Origin: Eledone cirrhosa
Lineage: Eukaryota
Direction of reading: 5' to 3'
Assembly (NCBI GenBank): GCA_964016885.1
Contig: OZ024740.1
Span: 363,320,001 to 363,384,000, forward strand
DNA length: 64,000 nt
The notes beneath the pieces are model-generated. The model was given only the letters and a program-made list of their open reading frames with translations, was not told the DNA's origin and made no database searches. Shown in pieces: positions 24,846 through 59,280 of the stretch (the stretch's first letter is position 1; every line of letters begins with the position of its first letter). The position numbers and the translations under genes are program-made.

Positions 24846-27800
24846 TCACCCTCTGCTTAGACTGGAAAGTAGTCGATAAAAATGAGGAGAAAATTTCTGC
24901 AAAGGTAACATAAGTCAAGCAAAGCAAATACAAAAATGAAGAAAGAGAAATGAAAGAATAGTTCGTATGTAAATGGTTTTACAAAGTTTCTTGGGCCAAC
25001 TTCGAGATGTCATGACGTATGTTGAAGGTAAAGGAGTGTGTGTATGAAATTGTGGTGCTTGCGATGATGTTTGTATTGACACATGGTAGGAAGGGGGAGT
25101 ATGAAGCTATGGTGCGAGAGCATCTGTGTAGGCCCGCTTTAGTCTGTCAATAGAGACTGTGTCTCTATGTCCATTAAAGTCAATGGTGAAATGTTTGTCT
25201 GTAGGTGCTAGTACGCGATTGGGTCCAGAGTAAGGTGGAATGAGAGGACTTCTCACTGCGTCATTTCTGACAAAAACAGATAGATCCCTGAAAAGTTGAG
25301 ATACGAACTGCCTACCACGGTCTGTAGTAATAGTGGTAGGAAATCTGTAGTGCGATATCCATCCTGAAACCAGGGCTCGCGCTACTGATTCATCAGTTAT
25401 GTCACTAAGAGGGATGGCTTCAGGCCATCGGGTGAAATGATCAATGCAGATCAGGATGTATGAATATCCACGACTGACAGGCCAAGGTCCGACGATATCG
25501 ATATCTATGTGGCAAAAACGTGCGGCAGGTGTGCTAAATGTGCCGAGAGCTGCGCGAATATGTTTATGCACCTTCGACTTCTGACAAACAAACAGGAACG
25601 TGACCAAGCAGTAATATCACGTCTCATATTCGGCCAAAAGAATCTAGCTGAAATGAGTTTCACTGTGGTGGAAAATTCTGGGATGTGCCGGACTGTGTAG
25701 AGAATCAAAAACTATTCGACGTTGAGTCTCTGGGACCAGAGGGCGAGGTGAATCTGTCGCAGTATCACACAGAATCTGAGAGTCCAAAGTGGGAACAGGC
25801 AGGTATGTGAATTTGCAGATTGCTAATTCAGGTGAAGAGAGATTCAACGATTCTAGGGCGGGCTGTTCTGCAATATTCGCAGGTGCTGACAAGAAATTGA
25901 TGGGTAGGCGAGATAAGGCATACGCCGCTGTATTTTGTTCACCAGGTATATGACGAATGTCATTCGTAAACTGTGTTATGAAGTCCAAATGACAAGTTTC
26001 TCGAGGTGAGTATTTGTCCGGATTGGAACCAAGTGTGAACGTAAGTGGACGATGGTCGGTATAGATCGCAAATTATCAGCCTTCCAGTGAATGCCGAAAG
26101 CATTTGACAGCCAGGAAAATGGCTAACAGTTCCCAGCCGAATGTGCTATAGCGGGATTCGGCGGGCTTAAGCTGCTTTGAAAAGAAAACAAGAGGTTGAA
26201 GCTGTTGTTGGTGATGCTGTTGCAATACTGCACCTACCGCTCTGCTTGATGGATCCACAACCAGCGAAAACTGGGCACCAGACACAGGGTGTGCAAGAAG
26301 AGATGTGTTTGCTAAATTCTGTTTAGCTTTGGAGAATGCTTCGAGTTGCATAGGTTCTAAAGTGATTGGTTCGTTCTTCTTCTTTCTGTTACGCAGGAGA
26401 TCAGATAGTGGAGCTAAGAGTTCTACGCAATGTGGGATAAACCGACGATAATAATTTAGGAGGCCCAGGAACTGCCGTAGCTGTCGCAAGGAAGTAGGCG
26501 GATGGAGTGCCTGAAGAGCCTTCACTTTTTCAGGAAGTGGGAATATTCCTTCAAAACGACGAGTGAAGCAGCGTCGAAAATTCACTTCGCAGGGTTAATA
26601 CGAACTTGGTACTGCGTAAATCATTCAAACAGTTGGCGGAGGTGCGTGACATGATCCTCCGGTGAAGCACTCGCGATGAGAATATCATCGATGTAATAAT
26701 ATACAAAATCTAGGTCACGGACGACTTAGTCCATAAATCGCTGGAAGGTACTAGCAGCATTGCGTAATCCAAAAGGCATTATTAAAAACTCGAATGCACC
26801 GAAAGGTGTAATAATACCAGTTTTAGGAATGTCCGCAGGATTCACAGGGATTTGATGATATGCTTTGATGAAGTCCAATTTCGAAAAGATAGTACATCCA
26901 TGAAGCAAAGAAGCGAAATCCTGGATGTGAGGAATTGGTCCGGCACAGTGATCAAATTTAATCGCCGAAAATCTCCAGTGGGACGCCAGTCTTCCGAATG
27001 TTTCGGAACCATGTGCAAAGGCGAGGCCCACAGACTGGAAGAAGGGCGAACGATACCCAACTGCAGCATATGATTAAACTCTGCCTTAGCCGCTTTCAAT
27101 TTTTCCGGAGAAAGGCAACGCGGGCGTGAAAGAACTGGAGCACCCTTAGTCTCAATAAAATGCTTGGAAGAGTGAGTAGGGGTATCTACCGCAAAGTTCA
27201 GATTAGTTAATTCAGGAAAGGAATGCAAAAGCGCATGATACGGGTCATCCGAAGCAGCGATGAAGAAGACTGGACTGATAGCCTGGATTACTGAAGCACG
27301 TCCAAGCACAGAAAGATTCGTAGTTGCGTCCAATAAACGACGTGTCCGCATATCAACCATTAGATTATAATGATGCAAAAAATCGGCACCCAGAATAGGA
27401 TATGGCAAATCAGCTATGGTGAAAATCCATGAGAAATCTCTACGGAAATCCAGATCCAAAGAGCGAGAGATTTGTCTATACGTAGGGATAGCAGAATGGT
27501 TGATAGCATGTAGTGATATTTGTGAGAGAGGAGGTTTCTCTTTTAAGAGCTTCAAAGGCCGAATGTTGCACGACGCTCCCGTGTCAATGAGACAGCGTGC
27601 GTGCGGGGAGGAATCTGTGATAAAAAAAAAAAAGGCACGACTGTCAGTACAAGATTGCGAAGAAGACGGTGTGCTTAATTCTCCGGTACTCCGTTTCCCT
27701 GGTTTGGAAAAGAACAAGGCTGGATACATTTATGAGCCGAGGCTTCGAAACGCCTATGGTACCAGCACGTTCGCAAGGTTGAAGGTTGGAAACGACCAAG

Positions 27801-32962: not shown

Positions 32963-35134
32963 AAACTCCAAAGGAACCAAAAATAATCAACATATCGGCC
33001 AAAAAAAACTAACACAACAGGAAATAAAATTGCTAGAAAATGCACTGAAATTCACACCAACTCCAAAAGCAGATCAAGCCGACCTCATAAAAGACAGAAG
33101 ATTTTTGTCAAAAATTACATCTAGGAGAATTCTTCCAGGGTGTAGAATACAAGGAGGAATCACTAGTAAGAAACAAAAAGAACTTCAGGCCTCCGTTAAA
33201 TAGAGACAAACACCTGGAGGACTATATAACCTACCTCCGACGATCAGCACAGTCAAATACTGCAGAGACGAAACACAAACACAACATTCCTACAGACCAA
33301 CTGCAAGCACTAAACAAACTACAAAAAGACTCCTCAATAATCATAAAAGAAGCGGACAAAGGTGGAGCAATCATCATCATAGACAAAAACCACTACAATG
33401 ATATGGTCCTAGAACAGCTGAATAACGAGGACTTTTACAGAAAAATCAGCAAAAACGAAGAAAGAAAATTGATGATTAAAGTAGGCAAACTGACGACCAA
33501 GTACCAAAACATCCTCACACTAAAGGAAATCAGTTACGTAACCAGCTTTGAAATGAAAACCAGCAATTTTTATGGTTTAGCGAAGGTTCACAAATCCAGA
33601 GAAATCCAAAATACACAAAAGGCAAAAATACATCATATGTTGAAGTACCAAAACCGACAGATTTTAAATTACGCCCAATTGTTGCCGGTCTAGCCTCAAG
33701 CACACAACGTCTAAGCAACCTATTAGACATCATACTGAAACCCTTATGTAAAAAAGTGCCAAGCTTCATTAGAGATGATATGGAATTCCTGAACTATATC
33801 CCCCAGAAAGTACACCATCTTATATACTAACATCCCACATGACTTAGGAGTTGAAGCTGTTGACTTCTGGATTACAAAACATCCAGACTACATTTCAGAG
33901 AGATTCCCAAAAAAATTTATTTTTGATAACGAACTATATTTACAAATAAAAGAAACGGCTATCGGTACCAAAGTGGCCCCAACATATGCAACACTCGTTA
34001 TGGGCCACCTGGAGGCAAAATTACATTCCAAACTGCAGGAAACATTCAGTCATGACTTCACCACCTACATTAATCACAACTGGAAACGCTACCTAGACGA
34101 CTGCTTCATCTTCTGGAATAGAAGCCAAGAAGACCTTCAAAGATTCCATTCAATCATAAACAATCTTCACGAAGAAATAAAATTCACCATGGAATGTAAT
34201 AAAAAGGAACTACGGTTTCTGGATATCCTTATCATTAAGGAAGGGGAAAATATCAAAACAGACTTATTTTACAAACTAACAGACACACACCAATACTTGA
34301 ATTTCCGTTCAGCACACCCATCACATACCAACAGGAACATTCCTTTTAACATGGCAAGATGCATCTGTACCATAGTGACACACCCCACACTACAGGAAAA
34401 AAGATTATATGAATTAAAAAAGTTCCTTAAGAGACAAGAATATTCAGTGAACCTCATCAACACAACCATCTCCAAAGCCCAGAACATCCCAGTGACAACA
34501 CTGAGAAAAACAAAGCAACAAAATAGAATGGAAAAAACAGTTATCCCTTTTGTCATCACTCACAATCCAAGGAACTTCAACATTGTAAAAGCCGCCAAAC
34601 AATATCTCCCGATTCTCCAGCAGTCCCCCAAAATGAATGCACTCATAAAAGATGCACAAATTATATATAGTAGACGCCAAGCACCCAACCTAAAGAAACT
34701 GCTTACCAAGGCAAAATTTACGTCTAATAATGAAGCAATGCAAGTTAAGAAATGCGGGGACCCTCGATGTGGGACTTGCGAACTCATTGAAGAGGGTGGA
34801 CAAATCTCCTTTAAAAACAACCAGTCTTTCACAGTTAATGCAAACATGAATTGCAAAACAAAAAACTTGATTTACTGTGCAACCTGCCCACAATGTAAAG
34901 AATACTACATTGGTGAAACCGGAATGGGTCTACATGACAGAGTTCGAGTACATAAACAACAAATTAGAGACCCCTCTGTCAGAAACACGCAGTGAACACT
35001 TCGCAACATGCGGAAAGGGAAATTTCACAATTTTCCCCTTCTTTAAGATATGGTCGGACAACAAACACTTCCGAAAATATAAAGAAGAATTCTTTATTAG
35101 AAAATACAAACCACTACTGAACACAAAAAAGTGA
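32884..35134 (+). mobile_element. Neptune-type Penelope-like element RT + GIY-YIG ORF, frameshifted
   Basis: IINIS..LTQQEIKLLENALKFTPTP, IIKEADKGGAIII, FYGLAKVHK, LRPIVAG, AIGTKVAPTYATLVMG, WKRYLDDCF, FLDILI, YLNFRSAHP, Cys linker KCGDPRCGTC, NLIYCATCPQCKEYYIGETG..RVRVH..EEFFIRKYKPLLN. Confidence 0.92.
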
Positions 35135-44085: not shown

Positions 44086-44606
44086 CTGCATTCAAGAACA
44101 GAAAACAGTATTCTATATAATATTCTTGCATTTAGACAACAGATGAGAAGTAAATAACATCATTAGAATTAACTCTTAACATCCTGTACCACATGGAACT
44201 GCATTAACAAGACAGTCTTGAAAAGTACAAAACAACACTATGACTACATCACATTGAAGTCTTTAGTTTACTGCAAATGTTCCTGTTTGTTCACTAATAA
44301 AGATACAATAAGCATTTGAATTAACATACACACAAAAGCATATTAGTAAGACATTCTCTAAAAGTACAAAATGACACTATGTTTGCATCACATTTACAGC
44401 AAATTTCCCCAACAATCTGTTCAATATTAAAGATACTACAGACATTTGAATTAACATAACCGTTTTAGATATTTTTAGTTAAATCTCTATCAGAATCAGT
44501 ATTGTCTTACACTCTCTCATGCACCCCACTCATATTATTTCGCCCTCAAAAAATAACAACTTGACCAGTGTCAGATAGATTTTAAGAATAAGTTAAGATA
44601 TTCCAA

Positions 44607-44900
44607 TCATCATCATCATCATCATCATTTCATTTTACGTCCGCTTTACCCTGCTTGCAAGGGTGGGACGGGAACTGATTCTGGCTTGATTTCTACAGCT
44701 GGATGCCCTTCCTAACACCAACCTCATTTACAGTGAGTGCTGGGTGCTTTTTTTGCCGTGGCACCTCCACGACCACTTTGCAGTGGAATGATATGGACCC
44801 CAGTCCCTATCATCTCATTTCTACAGCTGAGTAAACTGGAGCAATGTGAAATAAAGTGTCTTGCTCAAGGAAACAACACATCACCCGGTCGCTCAAGGAA
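44607..44900 (-). mobile_element. SINE copies (RTE-tailed, plus a tRNA-SINE core)
   Basis: Inverse of 35795-35942, followed by aagtgtcttgctcaagga(a)acaac, a core also seen degenerate at ~40690, ~42870 and ~43625. Confidence 0.65.
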
Positions 44901-45602
44901 ACAATATTATATTATATTTAAATTCATAAATGTTTTCAGCTCTGCCTTTAAAAATGTTAAATTCCATTACCCTACTGTAATGTAGTTGATGAAAAGAGAG
45001 ACAAGTTAGATTCATATGACATAGGGGCAATTGGAAAATTTATTCTGAACAAGGAAAAAGAAAGTGGAAGGGAGCTGATTGTCAGATCAGATTAATCCTT
45101 TAGTGTTCAAACCAGCCAAAATTATTTCCCCTTTATTTGTTCAAACTGGCCAATTCTGATTGCAGACACCCAGACTAAGATATTCTAAAAATAAACAATA
45201 ATGTCATCAAAATCTCATTGATTTTAGATTAATGCACGATAAGGGCTTTACTGCAAAAAATAACACATAATACAGTGAAATAATTTGAAACAACACTTAT
45301 TTTTTTTGACATTGGAAGTATAACTGATTTTTTGTGTGTATCAACATGGCTTATGAAAGTAGCGATACCGACTTTGAAGGTTTTACACACGATAACATTC
45401 AAAATGAAAGAAAACATCAGTGATTTATCTTCAAATGAATCAGATTTATATATCTTTGAATTTTCATGTACTCTTACACAATATACTGTGTAGATTTACA
45501 TTACAGAATGTGTCCAATATATAAGTTCATTAACAGGTGTGATGTAGGTGTAAGACATTATTATACCGCAGATGTACATATTTATGAGGGCAAGATCCTC
45601 TG

Positions 45603-46270
45603 CTAGGAGCACCAAAGAAAAAAACAGTCAAAATATATGTCTGAGATAAAGTGGAAGGGTTCAGTCAGAAACCACACAACATCATGTCCCAATCCATTTT
45701 TTTTCTCTCTGTTATATTTTTTCTCCATGTAAATATCAAAGTTAGCACAGTTGCCTGTGTCTGATTCCCACACCTTGATGCCCCATTTGGTGGGCTTAGC
45801 TGGCATATACTGTCTAAAATGTACCCTACCCTTATACCCAATCATTGCTTCATCAACACTGAGATTTTTTCCAGGTATATATACAGTTTGAAATTTTTCA
45901 GATAATACAATTAATGGTTTGACTTTATAGAGAGGATCGTAATTCGATTCATTTCTACTGGGAGCATTTGAAGTATCGACCAGGTGCAATTACTGATTTA
46001 ATTTCAAATGCCTTGTTTTCAGCATAATACTTGATATATAAGGGTCACTAAACCTTATATCAGTGCTCCAGTAGTTCCAGTCTTGGAAATTGTTTTATTT
46101 TATTGATTGAAAAAAATGCTTGAATCTCCACAGTGTCTGCCAGTTGCCATAGCAGATCGGCTTTTCCCTGATTTGAAATTTCTTTTTGAGCATATCGATT
46201 TATCTCTTTTGCCACAACTTCAAAGAAAGTCTGTGGCAAAAAACAAAAGAAAATAATCCAGTGCTTTAGC
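45603..46270 (-). pseudogene. piggyBac transposase fragment (core up to the second catalytic Asp)
   Basis: ORF 45603-45989 plus upstream frames; frameshifted and truncated. Confidence 0.88.
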
Positions 46271-49200
46271 ACCAGGAGGTAATGTGTGTTGTGGACCAGT
46301 ATTGGGAGATAATGTGTGTTGTGGATCAGTATTGGGAGGTAATGTGTGTTGTGGACCAGCATCAGGAGGTAATGTGTGTTGTGGAACAGTATTGGGAGGG
46401 AATGTGTGTTGTGGACCAGTATTGGGAGGTAATGTGTGTAGTGGACCAGTATTGGGAGGTAATGTGTGTTATGGACCAGTATTGGGAGGTAATGTGTGTT
46501 GTGGACCAGTATTGGGAGGTAATGTGTGTTATGGACCAGTATTGGGAGGTAATGTGTGTTGTGGACCAGTATTGGTAGGTAATGTGTGTTGTGGACCAGT
46601 ATTGGGAGGTAATGTGTGTTGTGGACCAGTATTGGGAGGTAATGTGTGATGTGGACCAGCATCGGGAGGTAATGTGTGTTGTGGACCAGTATTGGGAGGG
46701 AATGTCTGTTATGGACCAGTATTGGGAGGTAATGTGTGTTGTGGACCAGCATCAGGAGGGAATGTGTGTTGTGGACCAGCATCAGGAGGTAATGTGTGTT
46801 GTGGACCAGTATTGGGAGGTAATGTGTGTTGTGGACCAGCATCAGGAGGTAATGTGTGTTGTGGACCAGTATTGGGAGGTAATGTGTGTTGTGGACCATT
46901 ATTGGGAGGTAATGTGTATTGTGCACCAGTATTGGGAGGTAATGTGTGTTGTGGACCAGTATTGGGAGGTAATGTGTGTTGTGGACCAGTATTGGGAGGT
47001 AATGTGTATTGTGGACCAGCATTGGGAGGTAATGTGTGTTGTGGACCAGCATCAGGAGGTAATGTGTGTTGTGGACCAGTATTGGGAGGGAATGTGTATT
47101 GTGGACCAGCATTGGGAGGGAATGTGTGTTGTGGACCAGTATTGGGAGGTAATGTGTGTTGTGGACCAGTATTGGGAGGTAATGTGTGTTGTGGACCAGT
47201 ATTGGGAGGTAATATGTGTTGTGGACCAGTATTGGGAGGTAATGTGTGTTGTGGACCAGTATTGGGAGGTAATGTGTGTTGTGGACCAGCATCAGGAGGT
47301 AATGTGTGTTGTGGACCAGCATCAGGAGGTAATGTGTGTTGTGGACCAGCATCAGGAGGTAATGTGTGTTGTGGACCAGTATTGGGAGGTAATGTGTGTT
47401 GTGGACGAGTATTGGGAGGTAATGTGTGTTGTGGACCAGTATTGGGAGGTAATGTGTGTTGTGGACCAGTATTGGGAGGTAATGTGTGTTGTGGACCAGC
47501 ATCAAGAGGTAATATGTGTTGTGGACCAGTATTGGGAGGTAATGTGTGTTGTGGACCAGTATTGGGAGGTAATGTGTGTTGTGGACCAGCATTGGCAGGT
47601 AATGTGTGTTGTGGACCAGTATTGGGAGGTTATGTGTGTTGTGGACCATTATTGGGAGGTAATGTGTATTGTGGACCAGCATTGGCAGGTAATGTGTGTT
47701 GTGGACCAGTATTGGGAGGTTATGTGTGTTGTGGACCAGCATTGGCAGGTAATGTGTGTTGTGGACCAGTATTGGGAGGTTATGTGTGTTGTGGACCAGT
47801 ATTGGGAGGTAATGTGTGTTGGGGACCAGTATTGGGAGGCTATGTGTGTTGTGGACCAGTATTGGGAGGGAATGTGTGTTGTGGACCAGTATCGGGAGGT
47901 AATGTGTATTGTGGACCAGTATTGGGAGGTAATGTGTGTTGTGGACCAGTATTGGGAGGTAATGTGTGTTGTGGACCAGCATCAGGAGGTAATGTGTGTT
48001 GTGGACCAGCATCAGGAGGTAATGTGTGTTGTGGACCAGCATCAGGAGGTAATGTGTGTTGTGGGCCAGTATTGGGAGGTAATGTGTGTTGTGGACGAGT
48101 ATTGGGAGGTAATGTGTGTTGTGGACCAGTATTGGGAGGTAATGTGTGTTGTGGACCAGTATTGGGAGGTAATGTGTGTTGTGGACCAGCATCAAGAGGT
48201 AATATGTGTTGTGGACCAGTATTGGGAGGTAATGTGTGTTGTGGACCAGTATTGGGAGGTAATGTGTGTTGTGGACCAGCATTGGCAGGTAATGTGTGTT
48301 GTGGACCAGTATTGGGAGGTTATGTGTGTTGTGGACCATTATTGGGAGGTAATGTGTATTGTGGACCAGCATTGGCAGGTAATGTGTGTTGTGGACCAGT
48401 ATTGGGAGGTTATGTGTGTTGTGGACCAGCATTGGCAGGTAATGTGTGTTGTGGACCAGTATTGGGAGGTTATGTGTGTTGTGGACCAGTATTGGGAGGT
48501 AATGTGTGTTGGGGACCAGTATTGGGAGGCTATGTGTGTTGTGGACCAGTATTGGGAGGGAATGTGTGTTGTGGACCAGTATCGGGAGGTAATGTGTATT
48601 GTGGACCAGTATTGGGAGGTAATGTGTGTTGCGGACCAGTATTGGGAGGTAATGTGTGTTGTGGACCAGCATCAGGAGGTAATGTGTGTTGTGGACCAGT
48701 ATTGGGAGGTAATGTGTGTTGTGAACCAGTATTGGGAGGTAATGTGTGTTGTGGACCAGCATTGGGAGGGAATGTGTGTTGTGGACCAGTATTGGGAGGT
48801 AATGTGTATTGTGGACCAGCATTGGGAGGTAATGTGTGTTGTGGACCAGCATCAGGAGGTAATGTGTTGTGGACCAGTATTGGGAGGGAATGTGTGTTGT
48901 GGACCAGCATCAGGAGGTAATGTGTGTTGTGGACCAGTATTGGGAGGTAATGTGTGTTGTGGACCATTATTGGGAGGTAATGTGTATTGTGGACCAGCAT
49001 CAGGAGCTAATGTGTGTTGTGGACCAGTATTGGGAGGGAATGTGTGTTGTGGACCAGTATTGGGAGGTAATGTGTGTTGTGGACCAGCATCAGGAGGTAA
49101 TGTGTGTTGTGGACCAGTATTGGGAGGGAATGTGTGTTGTGGACCAGTATTGGGAGGTAATGTGTGTTGTGGACCAGTATTGGGAGGTAATGTGTGTTGT

Positions 49201-52200
49201 GGACCAGTATTGGGAGGGAATGTGTGTTGTGGACCAGTATTGGGAGGTAATGTGTGTTGTGGACCAGTATTGGGAGGGAATATGTGTTGTGGACCAGTAT
49301 TGGGAGGAAATGTGTGTTGTGGACAAGCATCAGGAGGTAATGTGTGTTGTGGACCAGTATTGGGAGGTAATGTGTGTTGTGGACCAGTATTGGGAGGGAA
49401 TGTGTGTTGTGGACCAGTATTGGGAGGTAATGTGTGTTGTGGACCAGTATTGGGAGGTAATGTGTGTTGTGGACCAGTATTGGGAGGTAATGTGTGTTGT
49501 GGACCAGTATTGGGAGGTAATGTGTGTTGTGGACCAGTATTGGGAGGTAATGTGTGTTGTGGACCAGTATTGGGAGGTAATGTGTGTTGTGGACCAGTAT
49601 TGGGAGGTAATGTGTGTTGTGGACCAGTATTGGGAGGTAATGTGTGTTGTGGACCAGTATTGGGAGGGAATGTGTGTTGTGGACCAGTATTGGGAGGTAA
49701 TGTGTGTTGTGGACCAGTATTGGGAGGGAATATGTGTTGTGGACCAGTATTGGGAGGAAATGTGTGTTGTGGACAAGCATCAGGAGGTAATGTGTGTTGT
49801 GGACCAGTATTGGGAGGTAATGTGTGTTGTGGACCAGTATTGGGAGGGAATGTGTGTTGTGGACCAGTATTGGGAGGTAATGTGTGTTGTGGACCAGTAT
49901 TGGGAGGTAATGTGTGTTGTGGACCAGTATTGGGAGGTAATGTGTGTTGTGGACCAGTATTGGGAGGTAATGTGTGTTGTGGACCAGTATTGGGAGGTAA
50001 TGTGTGTTGTGGACCAGTATTGGGAGGGAATGTGTGTTGTGGACCAGTATTGGGAGGTAATGTGTGTTGTGGACCAGTATTGGGAGGGAATATGTGTTGT
50101 GGACCAGTATTGGGAGGAAATGTGTGTTGTGGACAAGCATCAGGAGGTAATGTGTGTTGTGGACCAGTATTGGGAGGTAATGTGTGTTGTGGACCAGTAT
50201 TGGGAGGGAATGTATGTTGTGGACCAGTATTGGGAGGTAATGTGTGTTGTGGACCGGTATTGGGAGGTAATGTGTGTTGTGGACCAGTATTGGGAGGTAA
50301 TGTGTGTTGTGGACCAGTATTGGGAGGTAATGTGTGTTGTGGACCAGTATTGGGAGGGAATGTGTGTTGTGGACCAGTATTGGGAGGTAATGGGTGTTGT
50401 GGACCAGTATTGGGAGGGAATATGTGTTGTGGACCAGTATTGGGAGGAAATGTGTGTTGTGGACAAGCATCAGGAGGTAATGTGTGTTGTGGACCAGTAT
50501 TGGGAGGTAATGTGTGTTGTGGACCAGTATTGGGAGGGAATGTGTGTTGTGGACCAGTATTGGGAGGTAATGTGTGTTGTGGACCAGTATTGGGAGGTAA
50601 TGTGTGTTGTGGACCAGTATTGGGAGGTAATGTGTGTTGTGGACCAGTATTGGGAGGGAATGTGTGTTGTGGACCAGTATTGGGAGGTAATGTGTGTTGT
50701 GGACCAGTATTGGGAGGTAATGTGTGTTGGGGACCAGTATTGGGAGGGAATATGTGTTGTGGACCAGTATTGGGAGGAAATGTGTGTTGTGGACCAGTAT
50801 TGGGAGGTAATGTGTGTTGTGGACCAGTATTGGGAGGTAATGTGTGTTGGGGACAAGTATTGGGAGGTAATGTGTGTTGTGGACCAGCATCAGGAGGTCA
50901 TGTGTGTTGTGGACCAGTATTGGGAGGTTATGTGTGTTGAGGACCAGTATTGGGAGGTAATGTGTATTGTGGACCAGTATTGGGAGCTAATGTGTGTTGT
51001 GGACCAGTATTGGGTGGTAATGTGTGTTGCGGACCAGTATTGGGAGATTATGTGTGTTGTGGACCAGCATCAGGAGGTAATGTGTGTTGTGGACCAGTAT
51101 TGGGAGGGAATGTGTGTTGTGGACCAGTATTGGGAGGTAATGTGTATTGTGGACCAGTATTGGGAGGTAATATGTGTTGTGGACCAGTATTGGGAGGTAA
51201 TGTGTGATGTGGACCAGTATTGGGAGGTAATGTGTGTTGTGGACGAGTATTGGGAGGTAATGTGTGTTGTGGACCAGTATTGGGAGGTAATGTGTGTTGT
51301 GGACCAGCATCAGGAGCTAATGTGTGTTGTGGACCAGTATTGGGAGGTAATGTGTGTTGTGGACCAGTATTGGGAGGTAATGTGTGTTGTGGACCAGCAT
51401 CAGGAGGTAATGTGTGTTGTGGACCAGTATTGGGAGGTAATGTGTATTGTGGACCAGTATTGGGAGGTAATATGTGTTGTGGACCAGTATTGGGAGGTAA
51501 TGTGTGATGTGGACCAGTATTGGGAGGTAATGTGTGTTGTGGACGAGTATTGGGAGGTAATGTGTGTTGTGGACCAGTATTGGGAGGTAATGTGTGTTGT
51601 GGACCAGCATCAGGAGCTAATGTGTGTTGTGGACCAGTATTGGGAGGTAATGTGTGTTGTGGACCAGTATTGGGAGGTAATGTGTGTTGTGGACCAGCAT
51701 CAGGAGGTAATGTGTGTTGTGGACCAGTATTGGGAGGGAATGTGTGTTGTAGACCAGTATTGGGAGGTAATGTGTGTTGTGGACCAGTATTGGGAGGTAA
51801 CGTGTGTTGTGGACCAGTATTGGGAGGTAATGTGTGTTGTGGACCAGCATCAGGAGGTAATGTGTGTTGTGGACCAGCATCAGGAGGTAATGTGTCTTGT
51901 GGACCAGCATCAGGAGGTAATGTGTGTTGTGGACCAGTATTGGGAGGTAATGTGTATTGTGGACCAGCATCAGGAGCTAATGTGTGTTGTGGACCAGTAT
52001 TGGGAGGGAATGTGTGTTGTGGACCAGCATCAGGAGGTAATGTGTGTTGTGGACCAGTATTGGGAGGGAATGTGTGTTGTGGACCAGTATTGGGAGGTAA
52101 TGTGTGTTGTGGACCAGTATTGGGAGGTAATGTGTGTTGTGGACCAGTATTGGGAGGTAATGTGTGTTGTGGACCAGTATTGGGAGGGAATGTGTGTTGT

Positions 52201-55200
52201 GGACCAGTATTGGGAGGTAATGTGTGTTGTGGACCAGTATTGGGAGGGAATATGTGTTGTGGACCAGTATTGGGAGGAAATGTGTGTTGTGGACAAGCAT
52301 CAGGAGGTAATGTGTGTTGTGGACCAGTATTGGGAGGTAATGTGTGTTGTGGACCAGTATTGGGAGGGAATGTGTGTTGTGGACCAGTATTGGGAGGTAA
52401 TGTGTGTTGTGGACCAGTATTGGGAGGTAATGTGTGTTGTGGACCAGTATTGGGAGGTAATGTGTGTTGTGGACCAGTATTGGGAGGGAATGTGTGTTGT
52501 GAACCAGTATTGGGAGGTAATGTGTGTTGTGGACCAGTATTGGGAGGGAATATGTGTTGTGGACCAGTATTGGGAGGAAATGTGTGTTGTGGACAAGCAT
52601 CAGGAGGTAATGTGTGTTGTGGACCAGTATTGGGAGGTAATGTGTGTTGTGGACCAGTATTGGGAGGGAATGTGTGTTGTGGACCAGTATTGGGAGGTAA
52701 TGTGTGTTGTGGACCAGTATTGGGAGGTAATGTGTGTTGTGGACCAGTATTGGGAGGTAATGTGTGTTGTGGACCAGTATTGGGAGGTAATGTGTGTTGT
52801 GGACCAGTATTGGGAGGTAATGTGTGTTGTGGACCAGTATTGGGAGGGAATGTGTGTTGTGGACCAGTATTGGGAGGTAATGTGTGTTGTGGACCAGTAT
52901 TGGGAGGGAATATGTGTTGTGGACCAGTATTGGGAGGAAATGTGTGTTGTGGACAAGCATCAGGAGGTAATGTGTGTTGTGGACCAGTATTGGGAGGTAA
53001 TGTGTGTTGTGGACCAGTATTGGGAGGGAATGTGTGTTGTGGACCAGTATTGGGAGGTAATGTGTGTTGTGGACCAGTATTGGGAGGTAATGTGTGTTGT
53101 GGACCAGTATTGGGAGGTAATGTGTGTTGTGGACCAGTATTGGGAGGTAATGTGTGTTGTGGACCAGTATAGGGAGGGAATGTGTGTTGTGGACCAGTAT
53201 TGGGAGGTAATGTGTGTTGTGGACCAGTATTGGGAGGGAATATGTGTTGTGGACCAGTATTGGGAGGAAATGTGTGTTGTGGACAAGCATCAGGAGGTAA
53301 TGTGTGTTGTGGACCAGTATTGGGAGGTAATGTGTGTTGTGGACCAGTATTGGGAGGGAATGTGTGTTGTGGACCAGTATTGGGAGGTAATGTGTGTTGT
53401 GGACCAGTATTGGGAGGTAATGTGTGTTGTGGACCAGTATTGGGAGGTAATGTGTGTTGTGGACCAGTATTGGGAGGGAATGTGTGTTGTGGACCAGTAT
53501 TGGGAGGTAATGTGTGTTGTGGACCAGTATTGGGAGGTAATGTGTGTTGGGGACCAGTATTGGGAGGGAATATGTGTTGTGGACCAGTATTGGGAGGAAA
53601 TGTGTGTTGTGGACCAGTATTGGGAGGTAATGTGTGTTGTGGACCAGTATTGGGAGGTAATGTGTGTTGGGGACAAGTATTGGGAGGTAATGTGTGTTGT
53701 GGACCAGCATCAGGAGGTCATGTGTGTTGTGGACCAGTATTGGGAGGTTATGTGTGTTGAGGACCAGTATTGGGAGGTAATGTGTATTGTGGACCAGTAT
53801 TGGGAGCTAATGTGTGTTGTGGACCAGTATTGGGTGGTAATGTGTGTTGCGGACCAGTATTGGGAGATTATGTGTGTTGTGGACCAGCATCAGGAGGTAA
53901 TGTGTGTTGTGGACCAGTATTGGGAGGGAATGTGTGTTGTGGACCAGTATTGGGAGGTAATGTGTATTGTGGACCAGTATTGGGAGGTAATATGTGTTGT
54001 GGACCAGTATTGGGAGGTAATGTGTGTTGTGGAACAGTATTGGGAGGTAATGTGTGTTGTGGACCAGCATCAGGAGGTAATGTGTGTTGTGGACCAGCAT
54101 CAGGAGGTAATGTGTCTTGTGGACCAGCATCAGGAGGTAATGTGTGTTGTGGACCAGTATTGGGAGGTAATGTGTGTTGTGGACGAGTATTGGGAGGTAA
54201 TGTGTGTTGTGGACCAGTATTGGGAGGTAATGTGTGTTGTGGACCAGTATTGGGAGGTAATGTGTGTTGTGGACCAGCATCAAGAGGTAATATGTGTTGT
54301 GGACCAGTATTGGGAGGTAATGTGTGTTGTGGACCAGTATTGGGAGGTAATGTGTGTTGTGGACCAGCATTGGCAGGTAATGTGTGTTGTGGACCAGTAT
54401 TGGGAGGTTATGTGTGTTGGGCACCAGCATCAGGAGGTAATGTGTGTTTTGGACCAGTATTGGGAGGTAATGTGCGTTGTGGACCAGTATTGGGAGGTAA
54501 TGTGTGTTGGGGACCAGTATTGGGAGGCTATGTGTGTTGTGGACCAGTATTGGGAGGGAATGTGTGTTGTGGACCAGTATCGGGAGGTAATGTGTATTGT
54601 GGACCAGTATTGGGAGGTAATGTGTGTTGTGGGCCAGTATTGGGAGGTAATGTGTGTTGTGGACCAGCATCAGGAGGTAATGTGTGTTGTGGACCAGTAT
54701 TGGGAGGTAATGTGTGTTGTGAACCAGTATTGGGAGGTAATGTGTGTTGTGGACCAGCATTGGGAGGGAATGTGTGTTGTGGACCAGTATTGGGAGGTAA
54801 TGTGTATTGTGGACCAGCATTGGGAGGTAATGTGTGTTGTGGACCAGCATCAGGAGGTAATGTGTTGTGGACCAGTATTGGGAGGGAATGTGTGTTGTGG
54901 ACCAGCATCAGGAGGTAATGTGTGTTGTGGACCAGTATTGGGAGGTAATGTGTGTTGTGGACCATTATTGGGAGGTAATGTGTATTGTGGACCAGCATCA
55001 GGAGCTAATGTGTGTTGTGGACCAGTATTGGGAGGGAATGTGTGTTGTGGACCAGTATTGGGAGGTAATGTGTGTTGTGGACCAGCATCAGGAGGTAATG
55101 TGTGTTGTGGACCAGTATTGGGAGGGAATGTGTGTTGTGGACCAGTATTGGGAGGTAATGTGTGTTGTGGACCAGTATTGGGAGGTAATGTGTGTTGTGG

Positions 55201-58200
55201 ACCAGTATTGGGAGGTAATGTGTGTTGTGGACCAGTATTGGGAGGGAATGTGTGTTGTGGACCAGTATTGGGAGGTAATGTGTGTTGTGGACCAGTATTG
55301 GGAGGTAATGTGTGTTGTGGACCAGTATTGGGAGGGAATGTGTGTTGTGGACCAGTATTGGGAGGTAATGTGTGTTGTGGACCAGTATTGGGAGGGAATA
55401 TGTGTTGTGGACCAGTATTGGGAGGGAATGTGTGTTGTGGACCAGTATTGGGAGGTAATGTGTGTTGTGGACCAGTATTGGGAGGTAATGTGTGTTGTGG
55501 ACCAGTATTGGGAGGTAATGTGTGTTGTGGACCAGTATTGGGAGGTAATGTGTGTTGTGGACCAGTATTGGGAGGTAATGTGTGTTGTGGACCAGTATTG
55601 GGAGGGAATGTGTGTTGTGGACCAGTATTGGGAGGTAATGTGTGTTGTGGACCAGTATTGGGAGGGAATATGTGTTATGGACCAGTATTGGGAGGAAATG
55701 TGTGTTGTGGACAAGCATCAGGAGGTAATGTGTGTTGTGGACCAGTATTGGGAGGTAATGTGTGTTGTGGACCAGTATTGGGAGGGAATGTGTGTTGTGG
55801 ACCAGTATTGGGAGGTAATGTGTGTTGTGGACCAGTATTGGGAGGTGATGTGTGTTGTGGACCAGTATTGGGAGGGAATGTGTGTTGTGGACCAGTATTG
55901 GGAGGTAATGTGTGTTGTGGACCAGTATTGGGAGGTAATGTGTGTTGGGGACCAGTATTGGGAGGGAATATGTGTTGTGGACCAGCATCAGGAGGTAATG
56001 TGTGTTGTGGACCAGTATTGGGAGGGAATGTGTGTTGTTGACCAGTATTGGGAGGTAATGTGTGTTGTGGTCCATTATTGGGATGTAATGTGTGTTGTGG
56101 ACCAGCATCAGGAGCTAATGTGTGTTGTGGACCAGTATTGGGAGGGAATGTGTGTTGTGGACCAGTATTGGGAGGTAATGTGTGTTGTGGACCAGCATCA
56201 GGAGGTAATGTGTGTTGTGGACAAGTATTGGGAGGTAATGTGTGTTGTGGACCAGTATTGGGAGGGAATGTGTGTTGTGGACCAGTATTGGGAGGTAATG
56301 TGTGTTGTGGACCAGTATTGGGAGGTAATGTGTGTTGGGGACCAGTATTGGGAGGTAATGTGTGTTGTGGACCAGCATCAGGAGGTAATGTGTGTTGGGG
56401 ACCAGTATTGGGAGGTAATGTGTGTTGTGGACCAGTATTGGGAGGTAATGTGTGTTGTGGACCAGCATCAGGAGGTAATGTGTGTTGGGGACCAGTATTG
56501 GGAGGTAATGTGTGTTGTGGACCAGCATCAGGAGGTAATGTGTGTTGTGGACCAGTATTGGGAGGTAATGTGTGTTGTGGACCAGTATTGGGAGGTAATG
56601 TGTGTTGTGGACCAGTATTGGGAGGTAATGTGTGTTGTGGACCAGTATTGGGAGGGAATATGTGTTGTGGACCAGTATTGGGAGGTAATGTGTGTTGTGG
56701 ACCAGCATCAGGAGGTAATGTGTGTTGTTGACCAGCATTGGGAGGAAATGTGTGTTGTGGACAAGCATCAGGAGGTAATGTGTGTTGTGGACCAGTATTG
56801 GGAGGTAATGTGTGTTGTGGACCAGTATTGGGAGGTAATGTGTGTTGTGGACCAGTATTGGGAGGGAATGTGTGTTGTGGACCAGTATTGGGAGGTAATG
56901 TGTGTTGTGGACCAGTATTGGGAGGTAATGTGTGTTGTGGACCAGTATTGGGCGGTAATGTGTGTTGGGGACCAGTATTGAGAGGTTATGTGTGTTGTGG
57001 ACCAGTATTGGGAGGGAATGTGTGTTGTGGACCAGTATTGGGCGGTAATGTGTGTTGGGGACCAGTATTGGGAGGTAATGTGTGTTGTGGACCAGTATTG
57101 GGAGGTAACGTGTGTTGTGGACCAGCATCAGGAGGTAATATGTGTTGTGGACCAGTATTGGGAGGGAATGTGTGTTGTGGACCAGTATTGGGAGGTAATA
57201 TGTGTTGTGGACCAGTATTGGGAGGTAATGTGTGTTGTGGACCAGCATCAGGAGGTAATGTGTGTTGTGGACCAGTATTGGGAGGGAATGTGTGTTGTGG
57301 ACCAGTATTGGGAGGTAATGTGTGTTGTGGACCAGTATTGGGAGGTAATGTGTGTTGGGGACCAGTATTGGGAAGTAATGTGTGTTGTGCACCAGCATCA
57401 GGAGGTAATGTGTGTTGTGGACCAGTATTGGGAGGTAATGTGTGTTGTCGACCAGTATTGGGAGGTAATGTGTGTTGTGGACCAGTATTGGGAGGTAATG
57501 TGTGTTGTGGACCAGCATTGGCAGGTAATGTGTGTTGTGGACCAGTATTGGGAGGTTATGTGTGTTGGGGACCAGTATTGGGAGGTAATGTGTATTGTGG
57601 ACCAGTATTGGGAGCTAATGTGTGTTGTGGACCAGTATTGGGCGGTAATGTGTGTTGGGGACCAGTATTGAGAGGTTATGTGTGTTGTGGACCAGTATTG
57701 GGAGGGAATGTGTGTTGTGGACCAGTATTGGGCGGTAATGTGTGTTGGGGACCAGTATTGGGAGGTAATGTGTGTTGTGGACCAGTATTGGGAGGTAACG
57801 TGTGTTGTGGACCAGCATCAGGAGGTAATATGTGTTGTGGACCAGTATTGGGAGGGAATGTGTGTTGTGGACCAGTATTGGGAGGTAATATGTGTTGTGG
57901 ACCAGTATTGGGAGGTAATGTGTGTTGTGGACCAGTATTGGGAGGTAATGTGTATTGTGGACCAGTATTGGGAGGTAATGTGTGTTGTGGACCAGTATTG
58001 GGAGGTAATATGTGTTGTGGACCAGTATTGGGAGGTAATGTGTGTTGTGGATCAGTATTGGGAGGTAATATGTGTTGTGGACCAGTATTGGGATGTAATG
58101 TGTGTTGTGGACCAGTATTGGGATGTAATGTGTGTTGTGGACCAGTATCAGGAGGTAATGTGTGTTGTGGACCAGTATTGGGAGGTAATGTGTGTTGTGG

Positions 58201-58449
58201 ACCAGTATTGGGAGGTAATATGTGTTGTGGACCAGTATTGGGAGGTAATGTGTGTTGTGGACCAGCATCAGGAGGTAATGTGTGTTGTGGACCAGTATTG
58301 GGAGGTAATGTGTGTTGTGGACCAGCATCAGGAGGTAATGTGTGTTGTGGAGCAGCATCAGGAGGTAATGTGTGTTGTGGACCAGTATTGGGAGGTTATG
58401 TGTGATGTGGACCAATATTGGGAGGTTATGTGTGATGTGGACCAGTATT
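46271..58449. repeat. 30-bp tandem satellite, ~400 copies, consensus GTGGACCAGTATTGGGAGGTAATGTGTGTT
   Basis: Direct reading: ~12.2 kb / 30 bp. Two 28-bp units at ~48860 and ~54860; recurrent variant ...CCAGCATCAGGAGG... Confidence 0.99.
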
Positions 58450-58702
58450 TTGAATAAAATTGGGAAGATGTATTGGTGTGGTGTTTCTCAACCATGTTGC
58501 TGTAATATTTTCAATGGCGTCCTGGAGATCTCCTTTGCTTTCACTTTCAAAACAACAACCATCATCAGATGAACAATCAGAGAATATATAAATCTGATTC
58601 ATTTGAAGATAAGCCACTAATATTATCTTTTGTTTCTTCTTCATTTTGGATGCCATCGTGTGTAAAACTTTCAAAGTCAATACCGTTACTTTCACAAGCC
58701 AT
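58450..58702 (-). pseudogene. piggyBac transposase N-terminus (acidic), frameshifted
   Basis: ATG at 58702: MACESNGIDFESF..SSNESD.., then ATWLRNTTPIHLPNFIQNTGP running into the satellite. Confidence 0.75.
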
Positions 58703-59280
58703 GTTGATACAAACAAAAAAATCTGTTGTACTTTCAACATTAAAAAAACATGTGTTGTTTCAAGCTGTTTCACTATAATAATTTTAATTTTCATAGTAAA
58801 GGCCTTATCTCGCAGTAATCACAAATTAACGAGAGTTTGATGATGGTACTGTTTATTTTTAGAACAATATTTTAGTGTGGGTGTTGTTGGCCGGTTTGAA
58901 CAAATAAAAGGGAAATAATTTTGGCCAGTTTTAGCCATTTTGAACACTAAAGGGCTAAGGAAACAATGTTTTTGTTGATCTTTCCATTACTATCTATCTG
59001 TTGGTTATTAGATAGAACCAAGGAAACAACCTTTCTATTGGTCTTTGCATTGCTGATATTAAATACCCATCACAGCACCTAGCAAAAGAAAGGAATCAAT
59101 CATCAGATAACATTAAGAAACTGTTTCCATTGGTCTTTCTATAGCTGATACTAACTGCCTGTTAAACCTCCTGGCAGAAAAAAGGAGCCAATTGTTAGAT
59201 TAGCCCAAGGAAACTATGTTTCTGTTAATCTTTCCATTGCTAATACTATCTGTTAGTTGTAACTCCTAGAAGAAGGAGCA

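Follow-up and report, generated by a model that had tools for sequence, protein, structure and literature searches.

The locus described here raises the question of how a decayed piggyBac transposase gene of Eledone cirrhosa came to hold a long tandem array, and whether the repeated unit is a piece of the gene itself. The locus lies in a window of 64,000 nucleotides, the whole stretch of DNA that was analyzed, and its features are collected in Table 1. On the minus strand, the reading runs from TWLRNTTPIHLPNFIQ through NTGPQHTLPP-type units to GAKALDYF. TRF reported the array (A1) at 46275-58449 with a period of 30, 406.0 copies, 92% matches, and a score of 20864, and tiling resolved it into 406 units, 404 of 30 bp and two of 28 bp, with a mean deviation of 4.1% from the most frequent letter in each column. 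Blocks of A1 are duplicated at lags of 10, 11, 15, 23, 94, and 200 units; stretches of 26, 19, and 18 units recur unchanged at lags of 94, 200, and 23, respectively. The preliminary description had counted two 2-bp deletions in the array; both are present, but they represent one event that was copied in the identical 19-unit block at lag 200. The 405 junctions carry the haplotypes C-A-A (319), T-G-G (65), C-A-G (15), and others (6). Array lengths given here, for A1 as for the other arrays, rest on the assembly; A1 was not bridged by the short contigs, which may derive from the source sample, and RAD data of another study gave hardly any coverage at this locus.

Table 1. Features of the piggyBac locus, in positions of the window
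Feature	Positions	Strand	Basis
5' part of the piggyBac copy; terminus CCCTTTAG at 58954, ATG at 58702	58450..58954	-	sequence comparison
Target site beside the 5' terminus, TTAG (TTAA with one change)	58955..58958	-	sequence
Array A1, 30-bp units, each an NTGPQHTLPP segment; unit 1 at 58449	46274..58449	-	TRF, tiling
28-bp unit (2-bp deletion), unit 120	54852..54879	-	tiling
Unit 320, 28 bp; carries the 2-bp deletion of unit 120 through block copying	48854..48881	-	tiling
Downstream arm of the imperfect 6-bp direct repeat, GGTGCT in the window copy	46268..46273	-	alignment to sisters
Decayed transposase core of the older subfamily B, interrupted by stops and frameshifts	45556..46273	-	PF13843 DDE_Tnp_1_7
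Element 3' remnant beyond an internal deletion of ~717 bp, junction near 45555/45556	45468..45555	-	sister alignment
TTAA and 5' end (~375 bp) of another copy (B-type), inverted relative to the first	45092..45467	+	alignment

The gene is broken outside the array too, by stops, the internal deletion, and the loss of its true 3' terminus. Its frameshifted N-terminal coding region ends in ..PNFIQ and groups with a younger/intermediate subfamily, and the window's own frame matched PF13843 with an E value of 6.8e-14 at 45750-45938. GAKALDYF follows the array, as had been described, but the stretch from there to KEINRYA crosses a frameshift. A 375-bp inverted match at this locus could be taken for a long terminal inverted repeat. 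We rejected this reading because the match is the 5' end of the second copy, which is 78% identical to the first 5' end, and because sister copies carry short terminal inverted repeats; a long self-inverted repeat was absent in the four sisters tested.

Sisters of about 2.5 kb carry CCCTTTAG at both ends as short terminal inverted repeats beginning CCC, and TTAA stands at both ends of L005, L007, and others. PF13843 (DDE_Tnp_1_7) was detected in four of five sister frames with E values down to 2.6e-54, a match to piggyBat had an E value of 1.4e-27, and identity to intact relatives reached 68%. The family thus resembles piggyBac and PGBD4-like transposases (PF13843; PDB 9c0f piggyBat, 6x67) in its TTAA target, CCC..GGG ends, and DDE_Tnp_1_7 core. 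Unlike working elements of that kind, the copies examined are decayed, and those with an array are non-autonomous; no intact ORF was found among 19 sisters, the longest stop-free stretch being 342 aa. First looks yielded 1152 and 1232 family candidates, figures that are not copy numbers. Before counting, we dropped L001, L091, and L121, which are the window itself, L093, whose alignment coordinates and identity are those of L092, and L106, L125, and L128, which occupy the places of L009, L008, and L015.

It had been proposed that alignment to other copies after removal of the array would leave one unit, and one unit is what we found in 47 of the 50 sister copies that keep the site. L104 carries an exact reciprocal 30-bp deletion at the unit site, and L002 a deletion near it. 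No tandem copies of the unit were found in 28 intact relatives from other organisms, which have one aligned segment there, apart from one relative that did not align at this place. The unit is therefore a single native segment of the piggyBac transposase, of which sisters and intact relatives hold one in-frame copy, and the concern that intact members might lack the NTGPQHTLPP segment can be set aside.

The array is found in more than one element. Five copies on three contigs (A1 to A5) carry it, with 406, ~1609, 156, 87, and 6 units; four of the arrays are long and head to tail (12.2, 48.3, 4.7, and 2.6 kb in the assembly), and the five together make up about 68 kb. This speaks against the single in-place event of the preliminary description. 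The commonest unit is identical in all five arrays, and both junctions are kept in A1 and A5. A3, A4, and A5 have TTAA at both ends and unrelated flanks. Genome-wide counts of junction patterns equaled the sums of the local counts (571 = 150 + 363 + 43 + 15; 173 = 40 + 133; 975 = 264 + 586 + 83 + 40 + 2; 9 = 4 + 5), and no exact junction match was found in the genome outside the five element copies. Because all matches lie inside these copies, the search at this stringency shows no satellite separate from the element, and the unit is not a widespread satellite unrelated to piggyBac.

An imperfect 6-bp direct repeat, AATACT/GATGCT, flanks the segment in register at a spacing of 30 bp. The upstream arm AATACT starts unit 1, and the downstream arm is GATGCT in most sisters and GGTGCT in the window; the arms match at four of six bases in most sisters, and L015 and L099 have all six bases in common. 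Use of this repeat as the seed is probable, and the exact deletion in L104 speaks for it. The earlier proposal of a duplication seeded by microhomology thus likely stands as to a short homology, but not as to upstream CTTCCCAAT as the source of the main monomer, since that sequence is 12 bp out of register. The second monomer does mirror the downstream flank, as had been proposed: the T-G-G monomer equals the 3' boundary of the element itself. We rejected the idea that both monomers came solely from a C-G junction through CpG decay. Such decay would account for C/T at column 30 in sisters, but it leaves over the linked change at column 4; C-G junctions number only nine, all in A1 and A2. Instability driven by hairpins was also rejected, as four of four 120-nt stretches folded worse than shuffled sequences (z +1.3 to +2.0).

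The array is not a protein repeat at present, in agreement with the preliminary description. In-frame stops occur in 25 of 403-406 units of A1 and in 42 of 82 units of A4, and all three stops that a single change can produce are present in A1. Synonymous changes account for 12 of the 49 variant types in A1 versus 23 of 90 possible, a share equal to chance, and selection on the peptide was not detected from the array variants. Since the variants are neutral and the first unit has a stop, the codon phase, to which a meaning had been attached, is incidental.

Variants and flanks bear on the relationship of the five copies. 23A, 16T, and 25G are common to A1, A4, and A5, and all three are missing from A3; A1 and A5 both open with two units bearing 23A and a change at column 15, which is T in A1 and C in A5. 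Among 47 single-unit copies, 23A occurs in one, 16T in none, and 25G in 20, so that 25G could have come by conversion. Each array also has private variants, which with the duplicated blocks of A1 indicate homogenization within arrays and higher-order structure, and A2 contains 422 distinct 30-mers. The 3' parts of all five array copies are B-type, whereas 42 of the 51 non-array copies examined are A-type. B copies lie 5.5-9% from their own majority and A copies about 2-6%, and the array copies are 85-91% identical to each other, no nearer than to other B copies. In trees that took in 13 of the 42 A-type copies, AU tests rejected one clade of array copies for all columns (p 0.0024) and for the 5' flank (p 0.0029) but not for the 3' flank (p 0.34). 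Because the flank trees reject a single array clade, recombination or repeated births had a role. In the window copy, the 5' half groups with one subfamily and the 3' half with another, so that its intact junctions do not imply one ancestral element as had been thought, and its ~717-bp deletion, whose junction resembles that in the non-array copies L002 and L003, is common to these two and absent from A2 and A4.

We consider it probable that the array was born once by slippage in an old subfamily, was spread by transposition as a short non-coding array, and grew locally by block duplication. Slippage between the seed arms would have duplicated the segment in a subfamily B element, with retention of the upstream arm giving the main C-A-A junction and retention of the downstream arm the T-G-G junction. 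A short array like that of the six-unit copy, already containing a TAA stop, may then have moved in trans within a non-autonomous element. Unequal exchange may underlie the observed duplications of blocks of 10-200 units and could have taken the arrays to 87 to ~1,609 units, and recombination between copies would have produced the mosaic halves of the window copy. We propose no function for the array, which behaves as neutral, self-amplifying DNA.

Other accounts explain part of these data. If the AATACT/GATGCT site were a slippage hot spot, four independent loci could each have duplicated their own single unit once inserted, expanded it, and converged on the C-A-A monomer. The L104 deletion indicates that the site slips on its own and therefore favors such repeated births, as do the nearby deletion in L002, the rejection of a single clade, the private variants in every array (A3 has few in common with the others), and the greater age of B copies, which allowed more time. 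Nevertheless, we regard this account as unlikely, given that 23A and 16T are shared, that A1 and A5 start alike, and that junction matches are confined to the five copies when first looks gave 1152 and 1232 candidates and the sampled copies are mostly A-type. It is rather improbable that, after one birth, ectopic gene conversion or unequal exchange through flank homology, instead of transposition, passed the array among dead, already inserted copies. The mosaic 5'/3' ancestry of A1 and A2, the deletion shared with non-array copies, and the lack of special closeness among array copies are what such conversion would leave; however, a star-like radiation of B copies under transposition gives equal flank distances as well, and the commoner A copies should also have served as donors or recipients, yet the array copies have B-type 3' parts without exception.

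A partial assembly effect, with A1 and A2 being alleles that were laid out in tandem or with lengths and block repeats mis-assembled, is very unlikely. A1 and A2 do occupy corresponding sites of a direct duplication of 165-250 kb whose blocks are mostly 1-4% apart, and the contig depth of 19.6 on shared sequence versus 10-13 on A1-specific sequence is as expected for two alleles, but two paralogues yield the same 2:1 ratio, the 550 kb contain no N gaps, and the two arrays are opposite in orientation and different in unit order, with A2 holding its many distinct 30-mers. Such an effect would also leave A3-A5 and the origin of the unit untouched. The flanks of A1 and A2 themselves are 8-14% apart where most surrounding host blocks are 1-4% apart, which counts against the explanation that we favor, of one birth followed by transposition and local growth. 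Capture or insertion of a satellite foreign to the transposon is extremely improbable, because sisters and intact relatives of other organisms contain the unit as native, in-frame transposase sequence, and because no array lies outside element copies. More tentatively, one genome may keep a series of satellite birth from one transposase segment, with 0, 1, 6, 87, 156, 406, and ~1,609 units, in which the transposon spreads a six-unit seed and the array takes its second monomer from the 3' boundary of the element and serves as a crossover hub joining halves of different piggyBac subfamilies.

Reportedly, a few 9-bp units are kept in a working gene in hobo. The hobo TPE repeats are similar in being an in-frame tandem repeat within a DNA-transposon ORF (PMC4807377), but the Eledone array has hundreds of units, stops, and neutral variation. 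A satellite derived from a transposase is not novel in itself, since PMC7320549 already describes one, the Chenopodium satellite CficCl-61-40, derived from the tnp2 transposase of a CACTA element (Jozin). There, as in Eledone, several loci have arrays in deletion derivatives of the element, and the start monomer of these adjacent arrays is a transposase fragment, of ~40 bp in Chenopodium. That case concerns CACTA and plants and became a major satellite of pan-chromosomal distribution, amounting to 3.8% of one genome; its motif was not found in complete tnp2 domains, and the mechanism was left open (PMC7320549). The Eledone case differs in involving piggyBac and five loci, in keeping the junctions in A1 and A5, in a unit that is native in sisters, and in showing a seed repeat and a reciprocal deletion. 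Satellites of Lathyrus sativus come from short arrays inside LTR retrotransposons and likewise expand at few sites after being carried by a dispersed element, but the elements are retrotransposons and expansion is mainly at primary constrictions (PMC7004042). In the Haber-Louis model of minisatellite birth between direct repeats of 5-10 bp, as is likely for Eledone, short direct repeats on either side of a segment lead to its duplication, and local expansion follows; among human TE-derived minisatellites, LTR12 repeats were also spread by transposition. Most of the human cases are Alu/LTR and have 2-3 units (PMC3389668), whereas the Eledone seed matches at only four of six bases and the arrays reach 48 kb.

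Our literature searches, by title or abstract start and with few subscription papers covered, found no satellite derived from a piggyBac transposase, and the word "piggyBac" had 0 occurrences in the review texts searched. The Eledone array thus adds a piggyBac case, new and unusually complete, to a TE-to-satellite route that is already known, and neither a new function nor a new mechanism is indicated. As far as the searches reach, piggyBac coding sequence joins the known sources of satellite monomers. The start of tandem repeats of 10-100 bp is still poorly explained, and only 6% of human TE-derived repeats could be assigned to known models (PMC3389668). This family preserves, side by side and with datable flanks, the state before duplication, the product of deletion, a stage of six units, and four arrays that have expanded. 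Sister species and populations therefore offer a direct test of how the array was born, in which order the events occurred, and why growth was confined to some loci.

The tandem array of NTGPQHTLPP-type units before GAKALDYF that the preliminary description proposed for the window (A1) is real, and its documentation is better than at first thought. TRF found it as one array (period 30, 406.0 copies, 92% matches), and tiling of the minus strand gave 406 units, of which 404 are 30 bp long and the other two 28 bp; they depart by a mean of 4.1% from the most frequent letter of each column. The upstream frame terminates in ..TWLRNTTPIHLPNFIQ, and the units that follow it encode NTGPQHTLPP or DAGPQHTLPP. 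Three linked positions at the unit junctions read C-A-A in 319, T-G-G in 65, and C-A-G in 15 cases (n = 405). Identical unit runs were 26 at lag 94, 19 at lag 200, and 18 at lag 23. The two 2-bp deletions described earlier are present; since both lie within the lag-200 block, they represent a single event copied with it.

The array has counterparts: four further copies of the same piggyBac carry arrays (A2–A5). The 571 genome-wide matches of a junction 29-mer divided into 150 in the window, 363 in A2, 43 in A3, and 15 in A4, and totals for three further junction patterns (173, 9, and 975) equaled the sums of local counts. The 29-mer missed A5; a subfamily-B pattern independent of the array sequence found nine places, A5 among them. 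At exact-match stringency, the genome-wide junction patterns revealed no array outside these five copies, though diverged short ones could escape. TTAA ends are present in A3, A4, and A5. Similarity among the compared array flanks is limited to short A1–A3 matches of 55–106 bp. A3 contains a higher-order block of ~75 units and no in-frame stop or frameshift across 155 units; its gene start is deleted.

Location and extent of the features (positions without contig are local to the window; C1, C4, and C5 are contigs, with the window on C1)
Feature	Location	Extent	Remark
A1	46275-58449 (-)		
A2	194 kb from A1, opposite strand	48.3 kb, ~1,609 units	
A2 3' side	C1:363,620,690-363,621,560		permuted; N-terminal core absent
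A3	C4:371,183,660-371,188,400	156 units	
A4	C5	87 units	
A5 (copy L122)		six units	both junctions intact
Second piggyBac copy, 5' end	45096-45467		inverted relative to window copy
SINE-like insertion	44598-44904		very high copy; missing from duplicated locus beside A2
LTR-retrotransposon pol, decayed	25107-27729 (-)		integrase rve E 1.5e-10, RT-RNaseH E 2.6e-24
Reverse-transcriptase fragment	33793-34995 (+)		
Direct duplication	C1:363,361,700-363,525,000 vs 363,567,800-363,810,000		offset 196-288 kb, without N gaps
Inverted duplication, strong, local	C1:363,285,000-363,297,000		~3,500 unique 21-mers

In the host genome (3.0 Gb), the left flank of A1 gave at least 96 matches (40 scored of 1152 candidates), and 40 of 1232 candidates were scored for the right flank. 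Complete sister copies are ~2.5 kb long with ends TTAA-CCCTTTAG, encode PF13843, and match the structures of piggyBat and another piggyBac transposase, presumably of the T. ni type. The unit lies immediately ahead of the Pfam core. The W..F..GP..L..A..LDYF region is clear in close relatives, and none of 28 intact relatives (at most 68% identity) had a tandem copy there, one protein being unaligned in it. The window copy is dead, with stops, frameshifts, a ~717-bp deletion, and a missing 3' end. Most of copies L094–L120 represent an abundant non-autonomous derivative of ~1.1 kb, 3–6% from the majority, with a common internal deletion from reference 855 to 2326.

As the preliminary description anticipated, family copies without an array mostly hold one unit: 51 distinct ones were examined, the site was absent from one, and 47 of the 50 that keep it have a single unit. 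The unit is partly deleted in one copy and removed by a 39-bp deletion in L002; in L104, the loss between AATACT and GATGCT amounts to exactly 30 bp. Judging from the sequence, the in-register imperfect repeat AATACT/GATGCT is the likely seed of the array; CTTCCCAAT, suggested earlier, is 12 bp out of register. Retention of the upstream arm would give the C-A-A junction and that of the downstream arm T-G-G. Two single-unit copies, L015 and L099, end in a perfect AATACT repeat and may represent either arrays that collapsed or the state before duplication.

A1 and A2 have equivalent positions in the two parts of a ~165–250-kb direct duplication. In most of its unique blocks, substitutions amount to 1–4%, and insertion differences are many, but the element flanks of A1 and A2 differ by 8% (16/194) and 14% (13/91). 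The opposite orientations could be accounted for by an old inversion between the two inverted 5' ends. The duplication may be segmental or two haplotypes assembled in tandem. Contig depth, possibly that of the source sample, was 19.6 on shared sequence versus 10–13 on A1-specific sequence; because this fits alleles and paralogues alike, the array loci were counted as four independent ones. A SINE motif in the window appears octopus-like. On the permuted A2 side, the segment normally after the gene end comes before the core end; the sequence beyond is presumably mariner-like.

One birth followed by recombination is the reading we lean toward. It is favored by a commonest unit identical in all arrays, with T-G at the 3' boundary where retained, by B-type (older subfamily) 3' parts in all five array copies while 42 of 51 non-array copies are A-type (younger), by 23A (a stop), 16T, and 25G common to A1, A4, and A5, and by 23A in the first two units of both A1 and A5. 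Against it, AU tests, on trees that took in 13 of the 42 A copies, rejected a single array clade when all columns (p 0.0024) or the 5' flank alone (p 0.0029) were used; the 3' flank gave no rejection (p 0.34). A1 and A2 combine an A-like 5' flank with a B 3' flank, the A1 deletion recurs in non-array L002 and L003 but not in A2 or A4, and A3 lacks 23A, 16T, and 25G, the last being frequent in single-unit copies. Repeated births are improbable, and ectopic transfer of the array is slightly more so.

The array shows no sign of function. The codon phase noted earlier requires a unit length divisible by three, which chance provides in one case out of three, and the synonymous variant types (12/49 in A1, 23/86 in A2) are near the possible 23/90. 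Stops occur in 42 of 82 A4 units, and the array strands folded no better than shuffles.

Local expansion of short element-borne arrays (PMC7004042) and a direct-repeat model (PMC3389668) have been described. According to PMC9659126, non-coding parts prevail among TE-derived satellites, and the ORF-derived cases in the portion covered include no piggyBac; nor did the literature searched yield a piggyBac case of a transposase-derived satellite. The main Chenopodium satellite likewise derives from a DNA-transposon transposase, from a ~40-bp fragment of CACTA tnp2 rather than piggyBac (PMC7320549). The piggyBac array is a further case of an already known kind of satellite origin, and its value lies in the completeness of the series.
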